In this document: positions 2,690-58,952 of the stretch, piece by piece
How positions within the stretch are numbered: the stretch's first letter is position 1
How the letters are laid out: every line of letters begins with the position of its first letter
Assembly: GCF_044324785.1 (NCBI RefSeq)
Contig: NZ_CP172127.1
Direction: 5' to 3' (one strand)
DNA length: 64,000 bases
Source of the DNA: Escherichia coli
Lineage (GTDB): Bacteria; Pseudomonadota; Gammaproteobacteria; Enterobacterales; Enterobacteriaceae
The notes under the pieces: generated by a model
What the model saw: the letters and a program-made list of their open reading frames with translations, nothing else
What the model was told of the DNA's origin: nothing
Databases searched by the model: none
Translations under genes and position numbers: made by a program

Positions 2690-4840
2690 TTAACGCCGCC
2701 GACGGCGTGGGGATTTCGTTTTTTCTTTCTTTTTAACTATACCTTCAGGGACTTCCGGTTGCTCTATCGGAAATACCGGTAATGCATCCAGTAGCCGCTT
2801 GCCATAATTTTTGGTCAGCAAGCGTTTGTCGTAAATCACCACTTCGCCCCAGCAACCGTGGCTTCGAATCAGTCGCCCAACCTGCTGAATCAGGTTAAAC
2901 GAGGCGCTCGGCAGGCTTTGCACCTCAAACGGATAGCGGTTGAGGCTTTTCAGCCATTCTCCTTCGGTGATCACCACCGGGCTGTCGATGGGCGGAAAAG
3001 CGATTTTGTGGATATGCACCTGGCTGAGCAGATCGCCTTTCAAATCAAGCCCTTCGGCAAATGACTGCAAGCCCACCAGCACGCTACGCTCACCGTTGGC
3101 AACGCGTTTGCGGTGCAGTTCAACTAAACGGTAACGCGGCTGATCGCCCTGCACCAGCAACATCAGGCGTAAATCCGTCACATAGTCGAGAAACCGCTGC
3201 ATCGCCCGTCCGCTGGCAAACAGTACCAACATACCGAGATGTTTTTTGCTCTCCACCTGTTTACGGAAAAAGGCCGCCATTTCGGCAATGTGCTGCTCTT
3301 CGTTGTCGATGGAAGGCTCAACGCGCATCCGGGGAATAACAATTTTGCCCTGTTCGCAGTGGTTAAAGGGCGAATCCAGCGCCACAAAGCGGTCGCCCGC
3401 TTTCTCTTTCAGCCCGCTCATCTCCTGCAAACGCGAAAAACTGTTCAGCGAACGCAAGGTTGCGGAAGTGACAATAATGTGCGGAATACTGCGCCACAGC
3501 AGCCTTTCCAGCTGATCGCTGACACGAATACCCACGCAGTGAAACCAGAGATGCAGCTGCCCTTCGCGCTCTTCCCGCGTCGCCCATTTGGTCACCGGCG
3601 CACCGGAAGATTGCGCCAGAGACGCCAGCCGCCAGAGTTTGCTTTGCGCCTCGAACATCCCCAGCGCGCGGTTCATCTGCAAAATCAACCGATGCAGACG
3701 TACAATGTCATGGCTGCCGGTTTTCTCACTTAAATCGTTAAGAAATAACTCCGCCAGACCACGCAGCATCTCGGTGAGTTTTGCCAGCCGTTGGCAGATC
3801 TCCAGCACTTCATCAGGCAGTTCGCCCATCGCAAAACGGTGCTCTGCCTCCTGCCCGGCAGGCATGTAGAGGTTGAGAATGTTGTTTAACGAGGCGATAA
3901 GCTCATACAACTCTTCACAATGGGCATTCAAACGCTCGGGGATCGCCAGCGGAGGGATGGTCTTCGGGCGAAACTGCTCCATACAGGTAGCGACCAGTTT
4001 CGTGAACAAGTCCAGCTGTAGCCGATACCAGGGCGCGGTGATTTCGGCGCTCATCTCCAGCGCATCCCGTGCCACATCCGGCAGGTGATGACCTTCGTCC
4101 AGCACCAGCAGTAAATTTTTCGGGTCAGGCAATACGGCTTCGCTTTCCATCGCCGCCATCACCAGCGCATGGTTTGCCACTACAACTTCCGCTTCCTGAA
4201 TTTCCCGACGAGCGACAAAAAACGGGCATTCGCGATAGTAATAACAGTTGCGGTTGAGGCAGCTGGCTTTGTCGGTACTCAACCGACGCCAGAGATCATC
4301 ATCAATGGCGATATCCGTATGATCGCGCAGACCATCCCATTTATAAGTGTCGAGATCGCCCTTCAACTTTGCACAACGCTTTTGCTCTTCCTGATTGTTC
4401 GGCGTCAGCTCGTCGTCAAGAAACGCCAGCAGATCCTGTTGCGTGGGTTCAGTACTGGCAAGCGCTGTCAGATTACGCGGGCAAACGTAGCGCCCACGCC
4501 CAAAAGCGGCAGTGAATTTAAGATCGGGAATGATCTTTTTCAGCAATGGTAAATCTTTGCTGTAGATCTGATCCTGCAACGCCACGTTGGCGGTACTCAC
4601 CACCAACGTTTTTTGCTCTTCGCGGGCAATGGCGATGCCGGGAATCAAATAGGAGAGCGTTTTCCCAACGCCGGTGGGTGCTTCAATCGCCAGATGCCGC
4701 CCTTCTTCTCCGGCCAGCGTTTTGGCGACGTCCGCAATCATCTGCCGCTGCGGCGCACGGGGAATAAAGTCGGGGATCTGTTCCTGAAGCGCCTTATACC
4801 AGGCGGCAATTTGCGCTTTAAGCGCGGCGGTTAATGCCAT
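2690..4840 (-). CDS. dinG: ATP-dependent DNA helicase DinG
   Basis: 716-aa ORF with helicase motifs (GVGKT Walker A, DEGH box) and cysteine-containing region; a LexA box lies upstream. Confidence 0.95.
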   Translation of the reverse strand: MALTAALKAQIAAWYKALQEQIPDFIPRAPQRQMIADVAKTLAGEEGRHLAIEAPTGVGKTLSYLIPGIAIAREEQKTLVVSTANVALQDQIYSKDLPLLKKIIPDLKFTAAFGRGRYVCPRNLTALASTEPTQQDLLAFLDDELTPNNQEEQKRCAKLKGDLDTYKWDGLRDHTDIAIDDDLWRRLSTDKASCLNRNCYYYRECPFFVARREIQEAEVVVANHALVMAAMESEAVLPDPKNLLLVLDEGHHLPDVARDALEMSAEITAPWYRLQLDLFTKLVATCMEQFRPKTIPPLAIPERLNAHCEELYELIASLNNILNLYMPAGQEAEHRFAMGELPDEVLEICQRLAKLTEMLRGLAELFLNDLSEKTGSHDIVRLHRLILQMNRALGMFEAQSKLWRLASLAQSSGAPVTKWATREEREGQLHLWFHCVGIRVSDQLERLLWRSIPHIIVTSATLRSLNSFSRLQEMSGLKEKAGDRFVALDSPFNHCEQGKIVIPRMRVEPSIDNEEQHIAEMAAFFRKQVESKKHLGMLVLFASGRAMQRFLDYVTDLRLMLLVQGDQPRYRLVELHRKRVANGERSVLVGLQSFAEGLDLKGDLLSQVHIHKIAFPPIDSPVVITEGEWLKSLNRYPFEVQSLPSASFNLIQQVGRLIRSHGCWGEVVIYDKRLLTKNYGKRLLDALPVFPIEQPEVPEGIVKKKEKTKSPRRRRR

Positions 4841-5732: not shown

Positions 5733-5760
5733 AATGCGCTAACCTCTTTGTATACAGCAT

Positions 5761-5824
5761 GCAATTTATAATTAAAGATAGCGCAATTAATAATTAAAGA
5801 TAGCGCAATTAATAATAAATTGCA
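5761..5824 (-). promoter_or_regulatory. Putative promoter/operator of the toxin-antitoxin operon: tandem 22-bp direct repeats carrying four AATTGC half-sites
   Basis: aattaaagatagcgcaattaat occurs twice in tandem, with a flanking GCAATT-N7-AATTGC palindrome, 30 to 90 bp upstream of the antitoxin start. Confidence 0.45.
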
Positions 5825-5909
5825 TTTTTTGATCGTAAATTGTCCAGGGTGAAATTGCGGTAGAAAGAGACTTGTTGCGAAGATGCCGGGCATCGCCCGG
5901 CATAAAAAG

Positions 5910-24168: not shown

Positions 24169-24205
24169 CACGAAGCCGGAAGAATATTCCGGCTTCGTCA
24201 TCTTG

Positions 24206-26227
24206 TCACGACGCGGCAATAAACAACTCACGCAGCTGATGCAACTGGTCACGAATTTGCGCCGCTTCTTCGAACTCCAGATTTTGCGCGTGTTGCATCA
24301 TCAGCCCTTCCAGTTCATGGATTTTCTGCTGCAACGCTTTCGGCGACATATCCATCGGCACATTATCCGGCTCAACAATCGGTCGCGCTTTTCCTCTGCC
24401 CTTCGCTTTGGTTTTGGCAATGTTCTGCCCCAGCGCCAGGATATCGACCACTTTCTTGTTCAAGCCCTGCGGCGTAATACCGTGTTCCTCGTTGTACTTC
24501 TGCTGTTTCTCGCGGCGACGTTCGGTTTCGCCAATCGCTTTCGCCATTGACGGGGTGATCTTATCGCCGTAGAGAATCGCTTTACCGTTAACGTTACGCG
24601 CCGCACGACCAATAGTCTGGATCAACGAACGTTCAGAACGCAGGAAGCCTTCTTTGTCGGCGTCGAGGATCGCCACCAGCGAAACCTCCGGCATATCCAG
24701 ACCTTCGCGCAGTAAGTTGATCCCCACCAGCACGTCGAACTCGCCCAGACGCAAGTCGCGGATAATCTCCATACGTTCGACGGTGTCGATATCTGAGTGA
24801 AGATAACGCACGCGCTCGCCGTGTTCTTCGAGATATTCCGTGAGATCTTCCGCCATTCGCTTGGTCAGTGTGGTGACCAGCACGCGTTCGTTAATTGCCG
24901 CTCGCTGACGAATCTCCGATAGAAGATCATCGACCTGTGTCGCCACTGGCCGCACTTCGATAATCGGATCAAGCAATCCGGTTGGACGCACCACCTGATC
25001 CACCACATCGCCGCCGGATTTTTCCAGCTCGTAATTACCCGGCGTCGCCGAAACATAGATGGTTTGCGGCGCTAATGCTTCGAACTCTTCAAATTTCAGC
25101 GGACGGTTATCCAGCGCTGATGGCAGGCGGAAGCCATACTCCACCAGCGTCTCTTTACGCGCCCGGTCACCGCGATACATGCCGCCAATTTGCGGAATGG
25201 TAACGTGAGATTCATCGACCACCAGCAGCCCATCGGCAGGCAGGTAATCAAACAGCGTCGGCGGTGGCTCACCCGGTCCACGACCGGAGAGGAAGCGCGA
25301 GTAGTTCTCAATCCCGGAACAGTAGCCCAGCTCGTTCATCATCTCCAGATCAAACTGGGTACGCTGGGTCAGCCGCTGCTCTTCAAGCAACTTGTTGTTC
25401 TCCAACAGCACTTTGCGTCTGGCGGCCAGTTCTTCTTTGATCTCTTCCATCGCCTGTACGATGCGCTCGCGCGGCGTGACGTAGTGCGTTTTCGGGTAGA
25501 TGGTAAAACGTGGAATAGTGGAAACAATCTGCCCGGTGAGCGGGTCAAATAACGACAATCGTTCCACTTCCTCGTCAAACAGCTCCACGCGAAGTGCAAT
25601 GTCATCCGATTCTGCCGGGAAGATATCAATCACCTCACCACGAACGCGGAAAGTACCACGCTGGAATGCCTGATCATTACGAGCGTATTGCAGCTCCGCC
25701 AGTCGGCGCAGGATCGCGCGCTGATCGATAATCATGCCGACCGTGAGATGGAGCATCATCTTGAGATATAAATCAGGATCGCCCAGACCATAAATCGCGG
25801 AAACAGACGCCACCACAACCACATCACGCCGCTCCAGCATCGCTTTGGTAGCGGACAAACGCATCTGCTCAATATGTTCGTTTACCGAGGCATCTTTCTC
25901 AATGAAGGTGTCGGAACTCGGTACATAGGCTTCCGGCTGATAGTAGTCGTAGTAGGAGACGAAATACTCCACCGCGTTTTCCGGGAAGAACTCTTTCATT
26001 TCGCCATACAGCTGGGCCGCCAGCGTTTTGTTGGGCGCAAGTACCATGGTAGGGCGCTGAAGGTCAGCAATGACATTGGCAATGGTGAAGGTTTTCCCGG
26101 AGCCAGTCACGCCAAGTAACGTCTGGTGCGCCAGGCCATCTTCCAGCCCCTCTTCGAGACGTCGAATCGCCTCTGGCTGATCGCCAGAAGGTTTAAAAGC
26201 GGAATTCAGTTTGAACGGTTTACTCAT
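24206..26227 (-). CDS. uvrB: Excinuclease ABC subunit B
   Basis: 673-aa ORF with Walker A (GVTGSGKT) and a DESH box. Confidence 0.95.
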
Positions 26228-26292
26228 GAGTCGCTACCTGAAGGAGTTGGGCGGGCAGGTATGTAATTTTACTCGTCGTACTTAATTATGCC

Positions 26293-26310
26293 AACAAATT
26301 ATACTGGATA
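26293..26310 (-). promoter_or_regulatory. uvrB SOS (LexA) box
   Basis: Minus strand reads aactgtttttttatccagtataat, a CTGT-N8-CAGT box, about 70 bp upstream of uvrB. Confidence 0.7.
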
Positions 26311-26742
26311 AAAAAACAGTTCCTCACCATAATATTTCTGTTACAGCGTAAACTCCGCTGTCAATCATGAGCAAAATTTACTCTGTGGCGAGATAAAACT
26401 CCGGCCTTACCGGGTTATCCCCAAAGCAACGGCTTTTTTAACATTTGTCAAGATGAGTGATGACAGTTTTATGGCAAGAGATGCCTCTTCAGTGACTGCC
26501 ATTGCAATTATCTAACCAGTTAAAAAATAAAAGATATTTCTTTAAGCCGTCTTTAACGCCAATTCGCGTGCAAGCCGCGTATTCTCTCGCTTGCCTCGTG
26601 TTTTCTAACTCTAATACACATGGTTATCCACAGGAATAGTGGATAACTGTCTGCAGCCCCTATCCCCCGCCGCCTGGGCAATTCCCACATTCATCGCATG
26701 ATGCGGAAGTAAAATTTTTTTCGTGATTATTTTAGAATTTAA

Positions 26743-26794
26743 TTGGTTAAATTGCAGTCAACCGAAGACGCGATCTCGCTCGCAATTTAACCAA
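26743..26794. repeat. Perfect 13-bp inverted repeat (ttggttaaattgc / gcaatttaaccaa) with a 26-nt spacer, downstream of bioD
   Basis: Read directly from the sequence; function unknown. Confidence 0.5.
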
Positions 26795-26805
26795 ATACAG
26801 GATGG

Positions 26806-27489
26806 CTACAGCAAGGCAAGGTTTATGTACTTTCCGGTTGCCGCATTTTCTGGATTTTCTGCAAGCCAGGGGATCTCTCCCAGCAGCGGCGCGGGAATCA
26901 TGCGGGTGAGCGTGGCCATATATTCAGCGTGACGTTTTCCAGGAGGCGTGACATCATTCGCCACCCAACCTGCCAGAGTCAGTCCGGCGTGTTGTATTGC
27001 CTGTGCCGTCAACATCGCGTGATTAATGCAGCCGAGTTTCACGCCAACTACCAGTATCACCGGCAGTTGTTCCTGTGTTACCCAATCCGCAAAAGTGAAA
27101 GTGTCAGAAAGCGGCGTAAACCAGCCGCCAGCACCTTCCACTAACACCCAGTCAGCCTGTTGTTCAAGCGCGCGTAATCCGGCGCTCATTACCAATGATT
27201 CTATCGGCCTGCCCTCTTGTGCGCTGATGATGTGCGGCGAAGTGGGTTCTGCGAAGGTGTAAGGATTTACCGTTGCGTAATCCAGCTGCAGGCTACTGTT
27301 GCGCTGTAACGCCAGCGCGTCACTATTACGTAAGCCTTTCGGGGTCTTTTCGCTGCCAGAGGCGACCGGTTTATAACCTGCCGTCCGATAACCTGCTACC
27401 TTCGCGGCTTGTAAAAGTGCACAACTGGCGACAGTTTTCCCCACTTCGGTATCTGTTCCGGTGACAAAATAACGTTTACTCACGAGCAA
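26806..27489 (-). CDS. bioD: Dethiobiotin synthetase BioD
   Basis: 227-aa ORF with P-loop GTDTEVGKT; the true start may be 2 codons inside. Confidence 0.9.
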
Positions 27490-28231
27490 TTACTCCCAAA
27501 AAAAGATGATACGTCAGAGGATATCGCCCCTGTTGTTGCGGCCAAGCCAGTTGTAATCGCTGCAACTGCGAACGCGTTAATATTCGCGGGTCGCGCCCTT
27601 CATGAAGATGCGTGGCACCGATGCCTTTCAGCGAACGCATGGCACTGAGCGCATCAGCAAACCACAGCGTGATGGGCTGAATATGATGTTGATAATCCAC
27701 GCCGTTCAGCGACTGTTCGATTTCATCTGGCGGTAAAAAGCGATTAGCATGCGGGCGCTCGTCCACCGCCTGCCACGCCTGATGTAATTCAGGGAGCGAT
27801 CCCTGCACCAGCGTGGTAAACGCGACCACGCCTCCGGGGCGCACCACCCGATACAGCTCGCGAAGTGCCGTGGATAAATTACCGCACCACTGTACCGCGA
27901 GATTGCTCCATGCAAGATCGAAGGTTGCAGTCGCTAACGGCAGGGATTCGATATCTCCCGCCAGATAATGGTCTGCGGCATCCTTCTGGCGAGCCTGAAC
28001 AAGCATTGGCGGCGAGAGATCTAACGCCGTCACCTGCGCGTGACGTTCCCGCCAATGGCGGCTCATCCAGCCAGGTCCACAACCCGCGTCCAGTACGTGG
28101 GTGTATTTACGCTGTGGGAGCATTGCCAGTAAGACGTCAGCACTCTGGCGCTGTAACTCTGCGTGTTGCTCATAGTGCGCGGCTGCCCGACCAAATGCCG
28201 CTGCAATGGCTTGTTTATTAACCGTTGCCAT
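27476..28231 (-). CDS. bioC: Malonyl-ACP O-methyltransferase BioC
   Basis: ORF 27476..28270 trimmed to MATVNKQAI... (about 251 aa); SAM-methyltransferase motif LDAGCGPG. Confidence 0.9.
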
Positions 28232-29372
28232 GCAGCACCTCCAGCAGACGGTCGATATCCTGCATTTCATGCGCGGCGGTTAGTGTCAAGCGCAGTCGCG
28301 CAGTACCAGCGGGTACGGTTGGCGGGCGAATCGCCGTGACCCAGCAGCCTTGCTGGCGCAGTTTTTCTGCCAGTTGTAACGCACGGCTGTTATCACCGAC
28401 GATCAATGGCTGGATGGCGCTGCATGAATCAGCCAGCGTAAACGGCAAATCCTGTACTCCGGCACGAAAACGCGCAATGAGTGACACCAGTTTTTCGCGC
28501 CGTGCATCACCCTCATCACAGCGAATGACCGCCAGCGACGCACGTAATGCCTGCGCCTGAGCGGGCGGCATACTGGTGCTGTAGATAAGATGGCGGGCGA
28601 ATTGCAGCAGATAATCCGCCACCGTACTGGAGCAAAGCACCGCTGCCCCGCTGACGCCAAATCCTTTGCCAAAAGTCACCACCAGCAATTCTGGTTTTAC
28701 CTTTTGCAGCCAGCAGCTGCCACGCCCCTGCTCCCCGATAACGCCCGTGCCGTGGGCATCATCAACCATCAACCAGCCATTGTGCTGTTGCGTTACCTGC
28801 TGGATTTCCGCCAGTGGCGCACTATCGCCGTCCATGCTGAACACGCCTTCTGTCACCACCAGTTGCTGCCCCGGACAGGGGGAAGCAAGCAGTCGCGCCA
28901 GATGAGCGACATCGTTATGGGTAAAACGTCGAAGCTGCGACGGGCTTAAACTGGCAGCCTCCAGCAATGAGGCATGGCTAAGCCGGTCGGCAACAATACG
29001 GTCCTCTTTCGCCATCATCGCGGCAATGACTGCCTGATTAGCGGCAAAACCAGAGATAAACAGCAGTGCCCGCGAATAGCCCAGCCACTCGGCCAGTTCT
29101 TCTTCCAGCGCCTGATGTGCCACGCTATAACCGCTGACGTGACCGGAACCGCCGCTACCGACGCCAAATTGCTCCGCTCCCTGCTTCCATGCACGAATGA
29201 TGTCCGGATGATGGCTTAAGCCGAGGTAATCATTGCTGGAAAAGTTCAGATACTGGCGATCATCCGCCACCAGCCAGCGTCCGGCCCCTTGCGCCACTGG
29301 ATAACGGCGACGCAGGGCATCGGCAGCACGCCGCGCATCGAGCGCCGCGTTGATTTTCTCCTGCCAGCTCAT
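28218..29372 (-). CDS. bioF: 8-amino-7-oxononanoate synthase BioF
   Basis: 384-aa PLP-enzyme ORF; synteny. Confidence 0.95.
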
Positions 29373-30409
29373 AGTGCTGCCGCGTTGTAATATTCGTCAG
29401 TGTCCGGGGTCATCAGTGCCTGCTCCAGACGCTGCTGTTGTTCGTTATCCCCTGCCAGCACGGCAGTTTGCTGCGGATTTAGCCCCAGTTTGCGGAACAG
29501 TTGCAGGTCTTTATCTTCTTCCGGATTCGGCGTGGTTAGCAGTTTGCAACCGTAGAAAATTGAGTTAGCCCCGGCCATAAAGCACATCGCCTGAGTCTGT
29601 TCATTCATCTGCTCGCGTCCGGCAGAAAGGCGCACGTATGAGGTCGGCATCATGATCCGCGCTACGGCAATGGTGCGAATAAAATCAAAGGCATCGACAT
29701 CATCGTTATCCGCCAGTGGAGTGCCTTTCACCTTCACCAGCATGTTGATTGGCACGCTTTCCGGCGGCGTCGGCAGGTTTGCCAGTTGCAGTAATAATCC
29801 GGCGCGATCTTTCACCGTTTCGCCTAAGCCCACAATGCCACCTGAGCAGACTTTGATCCCGGCATCGCGCACTTTTTCCAGCGTATCAAGGCGTTCCTGA
29901 TAAGTGCGTGTGGTGATGATATTGCCGTAAAACTCCGGCGAGGTGTCGAGGTTGTGGTTGTAGTAATCCAGCCCGGCGTTCGCAAGGCGCTGCGCCTGAG
30001 ATTCACTCAACGTACCCAGCGTCATACACGCCTCCAGCCCCATCGCTTTTACTCCCTGCACCATTTGTTCCAGGTAGGGCATATCGCGTTCGTGGGGATT
30101 CTTCCACGCCGCGCCCATACAGAAACGTGTTGATCCCGCCGCTTTCGCTTTGCGCGCCGACTCCAGCACCTGTTCAACTTCCATCAGCCGCTCGGCTTCC
30201 AGCCCGGTTTTATAGCGCGAGCTTTGCGGGCAATATTTGCAATCTTCCGGACAAGCTCCGGTTTTAATCGACAGCAAAGTGCTGACCTGCACCTGACGTG
30301 GATCGAAATGCTGACGATGCACCTGCTGCGCTTCAAACAGCAGATCCAGCAACGGTTTTTCAAATAATTCTGTGACTTGCGACAATGTCCAGCGTGGGCG
30401 GTGAGCCAT
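29369..30409 (-). CDS. bioB: Biotin synthase BioB (radical SAM)
   Basis: 346-aa ORF with CPEDCKYC motif. Confidence 0.95.
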
Positions 30410-57862: not shown

Positions 57863-57893
57863 AAAAAAGCGCCTTTAGGGCGCTTTTTTACAT
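57863..57893 (-). terminator. Rho-independent terminator of the lysT tRNA operon
   Basis: Hairpin gcgcctttagggcgc flanked by A/T runs, immediately 3' of the last tRNA. Confidence 0.65.
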
Positions 57894-58913: not shown

Positions 58914-58952
58914 CACGACACGACCAGAAATAATGCGACTTCTGGTCGTGTG
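58914..58952 (-). terminator. Hairpin downstream of cpoB
   Basis: cacgacacgaccagaaataatgcgacttctggtcgtgtg, about 10 bp past the cpoB stop. Confidence 0.45.

Follow-up and report, generated by a model that had tools for sequence, protein, structure and literature searches.

The 64-kb stretch of Escherichia coli DNA analyzed here (the window) carries the biotin genes bioB, bioF, bioC, and bioD and also uvrB, all on the minus strand. The main features of the region are as follows.

29369-30409, minus strand: bioB
28218-29372, minus strand: bioF
26806-27489, minus strand: bioD
26624-26632: consensus DnaA box of DARS1, with an inverted partner box at 26639-26647
26302-26321: LexA box, with uvrB promoters P1 and P2
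24206-26227, minus strand: uvrB

The bioD-uvrB intergenic region has been well studied. It contains uvrB promoters P1 and P2 with the LexA box, a third promoter (P3), and DARS1 (PMC6015884, PMC5742627). DARS1 is 101 bp long, with a core that has three DnaA boxes and a regulatory region of approximately 50 bp (PMC5742627). The 578-bp bioD-uvrB spacer had a match of at least 95% identity in 5,424 of 5,426 complete E. coli genomes. The DARS1 core (TTATCCACT-N7-TGTGGATAA plus the third box) and approximately 60 nt on either side of it (window 26590-26700) were near-invariant in all sampled Enterobacteriaceae, and this core region was far more conserved than the remainder of the spacer. In E. coli strain ZH063 (H30; NZ_CP014522.1), the match to the spacer is split between two locations and breaks off around query position 232 (approximately window 26460), which points to an insertion in that strain's uvrB promoter region.

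Geometry and predicted folding of the repeat

A preliminary description of this DNA had reported a perfect 13-bp inverted repeat with a 26-nt spacer in the bioD-uvrB intergenic region, and this proved to be exact. The arms, TTGGTTAAATTGC (26743-26755) and GCAATTTAACCAA (26782-26794), are exact reverse complements. On the bioD sense (minus) strand, the repeat starts 11 nt past the bioD stop. It is not part of DARS1, because it starts at 26743, approximately 95 bp outside the outermost DARS1 DnaA box (boxes at 26624-26647) and beyond the 101-bp element, and it contains no DnaA box. The repeat and its immediate surroundings are made up of the following parts.

26806..26808, minus strand: bioD stop codon TAG (the RefSeq bioD coding sequence ends at the equivalent position)
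26796..26797, minus strand: outer two stem pairs, 5' side (partners, 26740..26741)
26782..26794, minus strand: 5' arm of the RNA stem, UUGGUUAAAUUGC in the bioD-sense RNA, homologous to the ancestral flank and first CRP-type half-site (aTGGTGAAAATGC in Citrobacter)
26756..26781, minus strand: 26-nt spacer (loop), whose end bases G26781 and U26756 could form a 14th (G·U) pair
26743..26755, minus strand: 3' arm of the RNA stem, GCAAUUUAACCAA, with its complementary form in Escherichia only and cGTTAGCTGAtaaa at the same columns in other genera
26740..26741, minus strand: outer two stem pairs, 3' side, pairing with 26796-26797 across a 1x1 mismatch
26728..26742, minus strand: A/U-rich tail past the stem, UUAAAUUCUAAAAUA, with 4 U in the first 8 nt and no U-tract
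26769..26784, no strand assigned: inner CRP-type dyad, degenerate in E. coli, with TGCGA (26784-26780), N6, and TCGCG (26773-26769), 7/10 core positions

The window had no other perfect inverted repeat of at least 13 bp (spacer of 3 to 60 nt). Dinucleotide-preserving shuffles (200 of them) had on average 0.035 such repeats per window, and only 3% of the shuffles had any. The stem lengthens to 14 pairs through the G·U pair (26781/26756, minus strand) and to 16 if one mismatch is allowed. It is A/U-rich, with 4 G-C pairs of 13, and two mini-hairpins are predicted inside the spacer. The 58-nt element has a predicted folding energy of -20.8 kcal/mol (z = -4.2 versus shuffles). Only the 58-nt element itself is unusual, since the fold of its 116-nt sense context was ordinary (z = -1.2). 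We conclude that the repeat is real and non-random but of an ordinary kind. Other perfect inverted repeats in the window are 11 to 12 bp long. They are at 58918-58951, at 5759-5825, and at 57863-57889 (AAAAAAGCGCC...GGCGCTTTTTT), and the last of these looks like a bidirectional intrinsic terminator.

Several identities were considered and rejected. A permissive Rfam scan of 26100-27000 gave chance matches only, the best being to a miRNA model (E = 1.2; 19 bits, with the gathering score at 76). A REP/BIME, ERIC, MITE, or other mobile element was rejected, because the repeat is single-copy (one match in the window and a median of one location per genome across 5,424 E. coli genomes) and its 5' arm is homologous to ancestral sequence. 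A promoter scan of the hairpin called none, and RefSeq has no annotation at the repeat site.

The pairing is confined to Escherichia and maintained there

We compared 80 enterobacterial bioD loci. The stem was seen only in Escherichia (loci L007-L012 and the E. coli strains). At the homologous columns, 12 or 13 of the 13 pairs can form in Escherichia versus 4 to 8 of 13 in Citrobacter, Salmonella, Kluyvera, and locus L028. By this comparison, the 13-bp pairing is a derived state in Escherichia. It persists in seven species-level lineages of Escherichia, and each E. coli haplotype sampled among the 5,424 genomes retains it. Conservation of the arms in related genomes, on which the preliminary description had made its reading depend, was therefore found within Escherichia and not in other enterobacteria.

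We also aligned 13 Escherichia sequences. The main helix was 97% paired in this alignment, and 7 of 26 arm columns were variable versus 10 of 13 columns in the 3' half of the spacer (Fisher p = 0.017, calculated with 9/13 and hence slightly conservative). The 5' half of the spacer was conserved. The downstream A/T-rich block, with 7 of 18 variable columns, was about as conserved as the arms. Most arm substitutions were transitions, and only on the sense strand of bioD do these give G·U pairs. Counted over the arm cells of the alignment, the sense strand had 3 unpaired and 7 wobble cells, and the antisense strand had 9 unpaired and 1 wobble. One true stem mismatch occurred in each of three species (L007, L010, and L011).

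The innermost pair is C-G in most strains, U·G in a 52-nt haplotype found exactly in 376 genomes (ATCC 11775 among them), and U-A in a haplotype found exactly in 4 genomes. Only two positions distinguish the U-A haplotype from the U·G one. Read in this order, the haplotypes trace a stepwise compensatory path from C-G through U·G to U-A. However, the innermost C-to-T arm change also shifts the inner dyad toward TGTGA, so an explanation at the DNA level can be given too. Formal covariation was not significant in the 13-sequence alignment. There was one compensatory pair and four wobble-only pairs among these closely related sequences, and the observed scores were reached by 68/500 and 61/500 shuffles. 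In strain UTME-3, the arms are perfect and the inner dyad is altered. The dyad also varies in E. albertii, again with intact arms.

An older CRP-type dyad and an extra ABC-ATPase gene

A different symmetric element, with the CRP-type form TGTGA-N6-TCACA, overlaps the inner arm and the spacer. The 5' arm is homologous to this dyad region, as is the first half of the spacer, and in many Enterobacteriaceae the dyad is conserved in position. It reads AAATGTGATTAAGATCTCAC in Enterobacter, AAATGTGACCCAAATCACAT in Pluralibacter (L050, a perfect match), AAATGCGAGCAAGATCTCG in Citrobacter, and AATTGCGAGCGAGATCGCG in Escherichia. The center of the dyad is 129 to 131 nt from the DARS1 DnaA box in approximately 50 of 75 enterobacterial loci, and the distance is 130 nt in the window. 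It lies in the same intergenic region as DARS1 and keeps its spacing to the DnaA boxes across genera. In 34 loci, 8 to 10 of the 10 core positions match, and shuffles reached at least 8 only 6% of the time. The Escherichia dyad (TGCGA-N6-TCGCG) differs from such sites. It matches at 7 of 10 positions, which is about chance level and was often met by shuffles, it varies between strains, and it is a candidate site that concerns the spacer and not the 13-bp arms. CRP-site positions G5, G7, A8, T15, C16, and C18 are retained in the E. coli dyad. Among loci L013-L086, the dyad often has an AAA flank and an internal GATC at orthologous positions (L050, L033, L037, and L044 are examples).

In approximately 50 loci (Enterobacter, Klebsiella, Kosakonia, and many Citrobacter), an extra gene separates bioD from uvrB. 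It encodes a 240-aa UrtE/LivF-like orphan ABC ATPase, is convergent with bioD, and overlaps the bioD 3' end by approximately 35 nt (3665-4387, minus strand, in L023). Escherichia, Salmonella, and Kluyvera do not have it. Strong dyads (at least 8/10) were present in 31 of 50 loci with the extra gene versus 3 of 24 without it, as raw locus counts uncorrected for phylogeny. Because strong dyads track this divergent ABC-ATPase gene, the comparison suggests that the dyad is a decaying relic in Escherichia. The gene has a leader of approximately 200 nt with conserved GGTGCA...CAGTGC blocks. Rfam at the gathering threshold gave no match in three loci with the extra gene (L023, L044, and L037).

An A/T-rich block, TTAGCTGATAAAAATCAAAAAATAGCGATAAAAATTTTTT, was strongly conserved between the CRP-type dyad and DARS1 in L013-L086, approximately 60 to 110 nt upstream of the DnaA boxes. 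Its spacing is fixed across genera, and it loosely resembles an IHF-type site. The Escherichia counterpart, CAATTTAACCAATTAAATTCTAAAATAATCACGAAAAAAATTTT (window 26700-26742), has diverged. Our literature search found no paper tying CRP to DARS1 and no published description that matched the dyad and the A/T-rich block.

Transcript evidence at the bioD 3' end

The Term-seq tables of Adams et al. (2021), which cover growth in LB and M63, have no 3' end or Rho-termination region at 812,900-813,499 of NC_000913.3 and no bioD entry (PMC7815308). However, uvrB also has no entry in their 3'-end list. This makes the sensitivity for these genes doubtful and the negative result at bioD a weak one. The TERMITe and SMRT-Cappable-seq files covered by the analysis have no bioD entry. 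A computational long-read analysis placed bioBFCD and uvrB in one transcription-unit cluster (bioRxiv 10.1101/2021.01.02.425006). This implies read-through, so that any termination after bioD would be leaky. A literature search found no description of a bioD terminator or of the repeat.

Alternative explanations

The repeat might terminate the bio operon efficiently as a canonical intrinsic (Rho-independent) terminator. Like such terminators, it is a stable hairpin directly past the operon's last gene, followed by an A/U-rich hybrid region. Unlike them, it has a loop of 24 to 26 nt instead of 3 to 8, only 4 of 13 G-C pairs, and no U run. Its sense tail, UUAAAUUC, has 4 U in the 8-nt window, where the criterion is at least 5, and the terminator scan called the site on neither strand. 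This bears out the preliminary description, which had seen no clean U-run and doubted a simple terminator. Together with the lack of a listed Term-seq 3' end and the long-read signs of bioBFCD-uvrB read-through, it makes an efficient terminator very improbable. (A terminator d-score was discarded as uncalibrated; it was negative even for the obvious bidirectional terminator at 57863-57889.) The least probable explanation, in our view, is that a DNA-binding protein, such as a DARS1 accessory factor or a repressor like BirA, recognizes the 13-bp arms as its two half-sites. Their symmetry is perfect, and the region is rich in regulatory elements, with DARS1, three uvrB promoters, and LexA and DnaA boxes (PMC6015884, PMC5742627). 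However, the arms are 39 bp apart center to center, the 3' arm is conserved in Escherichia only, the substitutions spoil the DNA symmetry yet keep wobble pairs in the RNA of one strand, and approximately 95 bp separate the repeat from the outermost DnaA box of the 101-bp DARS1. The published map of DnaA and LexA sites and the footprinting of the clustered uvrB promoters name no site here in their text. The BirA operator also differs in half-site orientation and spacing. The bioO half-sites (TTGTAAACC and GGTTTACAA) have AAACC facing inward across a spacer of approximately 16 bp, whereas in the repeat GGTT faces outward, AACC stands at the far end, and the spacer is 26 bp long. The window's own bioO is TTGTAAACC-N16-GGTTTACGA (also read as TTGTAAACC...GGTTTAC). 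The protein-binding dyad that the preliminary description had offered as one option thus finds no support in the 13-bp arms, and the anciently conserved element here is the different, inner CRP-type dyad (TGYGA-N6-TCNCR).

That inner dyad (26769-26784) might itself be the functional element, at which cAMP-CRP or a related factor acts on uvrB P3 or DARS1, with the arms incidental. The fixed distance from the DnaA box, the strong core matches in 34 loci, and the CRP-site positions retained in E. coli speak for it. In Escherichia, though, the match is at chance level, strong sites go with the ABC-ATPase gene, and the dyad changes within E. coli (UTME-3) and in E. albertii while the arms stay. It would also lie an estimated 170 to 180 nt upstream of P3, which is neither a class I nor a class II position. 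A full-text literature search returned only the paper on RpoD constitutive promoters, so uvrB goes unmentioned in the CRP genomic SELEX paper. We consider a functional CRP-type site in Escherichia improbable. A stronger competitor, although still somewhat unlikely, is that the repeat has no function and is a quasi-palindrome that arose incidentally, through sequence turnover in a relic promoter region once the neighboring gene was lost. A template-switch (quasi-palindrome correction) mutation could have created or perfected it, and it could have persisted because the Escherichia lineages are young. This would fit a pairing that is confined to one genus, covariation that is not significant, three species with a mismatch, and a site with no listed experimental 3' end and no RefSeq annotation. 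It would also fit the downstream A/T-rich block being about as conserved as the arms (7/18 variable columns). Against it, going from 4 to 8 pairs to 13 of 13 requires many coordinated changes in both arms, the 3' half of the spacer is far more variable than the arms beside it, and substitutions are biased toward wobble pairs on the sense strand, with one compensatory pair.

A possible 3'-UTR stem-loop of the bioBFCD mRNA

The explanation that we tentatively favor, at somewhat less than even odds, is that the repeat forms an Escherichia-specific 3'-UTR stem-loop of the bioBFCD mRNA, assembled from the relic of a lost gene's upstream region. It would serve in 3'-end protection or as a leaky pause site or terminator, and it would partly insulate DARS1 and uvrB P3. 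The preliminary description had named an RNA element in the bioD 3' UTR as its other option. Of its two interpretations this is the better supported one, by the pairing in all sampled Escherichia lineages, the wobble bias on the sense strand, and the single stepwise compensatory change.

We infer both that the RNA folds in the cell and what function the fold has, and we propose the following. As RNA polymerase exits bioD on the minus strand, the transcript would fold, 11 nt past the stop, into an A/U-rich stem of 14 to 16 bp. This stem would close a 24- to 26-nt loop with two small hairpins, at about -21 kcal/mol. The stem-loop may then mark the biotin-operon message at its 3' end and protect it by blocking 3'-to-5' exonucleases, and it would be at most a weak, leaky terminator or pause site. 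Read-through from bio into DARS1 and the uvrB promoters, approximately 95 bp downstream, might be limited in this way. As for its origin, an ancestor probably had the orphan ABC-ATPase gene convergent with bioD and a CRP-type site upstream of that gene. In Escherichia, which has no such gene, the leftover upstream region would have come to adjoin the bioD stop, and substitutions in both flanks could then have created the complementary arms. Relatives that also have no ABC-ATPase gene have canonical terminator-like hairpins at the equivalent place (2033-2052 in Salmonella locus L051 and 3722-3736 in L028). In a terminator scan after E. coli bioD, there was no candidate besides this A/U-rich stem.

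If the stem-loop truly sets the 3' end of the bio mRNA, then a 3'-end hairpin arose within a single genus out of what remained of a deleted gene's promoter region, and a replication-control element, DARS1, would be insulated from a metabolically regulated operon. This would be a modest gain for E. coli annotation, with no new mechanism. A more speculative extension, to which we give a low probability, is that the Escherichia hairpin is the local version of a larger, unrecognized regulatory architecture upstream of DARS1, to which the fixed-position CRP-type dyad and the conserved A/T-rich block of Enterobacteriaceae would belong. In such an architecture, carbon status sensed through cAMP-CRP, perhaps with a DNA-bending protein, would be coupled to DnaA reactivation or uvrB P3, and the module would have been rebuilt in Escherichia as an RNA hairpin that shields DARS1 from bio transcription. 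The fixed-position CRP-type site upstream of DARS1 in many enterobacteria is a by-product of this analysis that is perhaps of more value to replication researchers.

The 3'-UTR stem-loop can be compared with a described class. Dar and Sorek (2018) reported protective 3'-UTR stem-loops of bacterial mRNAs at the processed ends of Rho-dependent or read-through transcripts (PMC6061677). Stem-loops of this class resemble the one proposed here in being stable hairpins that follow soon after the last stop with no U-tract. By comparison with them, the bioD stem is unusually A/U-rich, its loop is large and branched (26 nt), and the Term-seq tables list no 3' end for it. There is also a perfect 12-bp hairpin at the uvrB 3' end, just past the uvrB stop at 24206 (24170-24198, minus strand; ACGAAGCCGGAA...TTCCGGCTTCGT). 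It is G+C-rich, with a 5-nt loop and no U-tract, and it gives the window a second 3' end that has a hairpin only.
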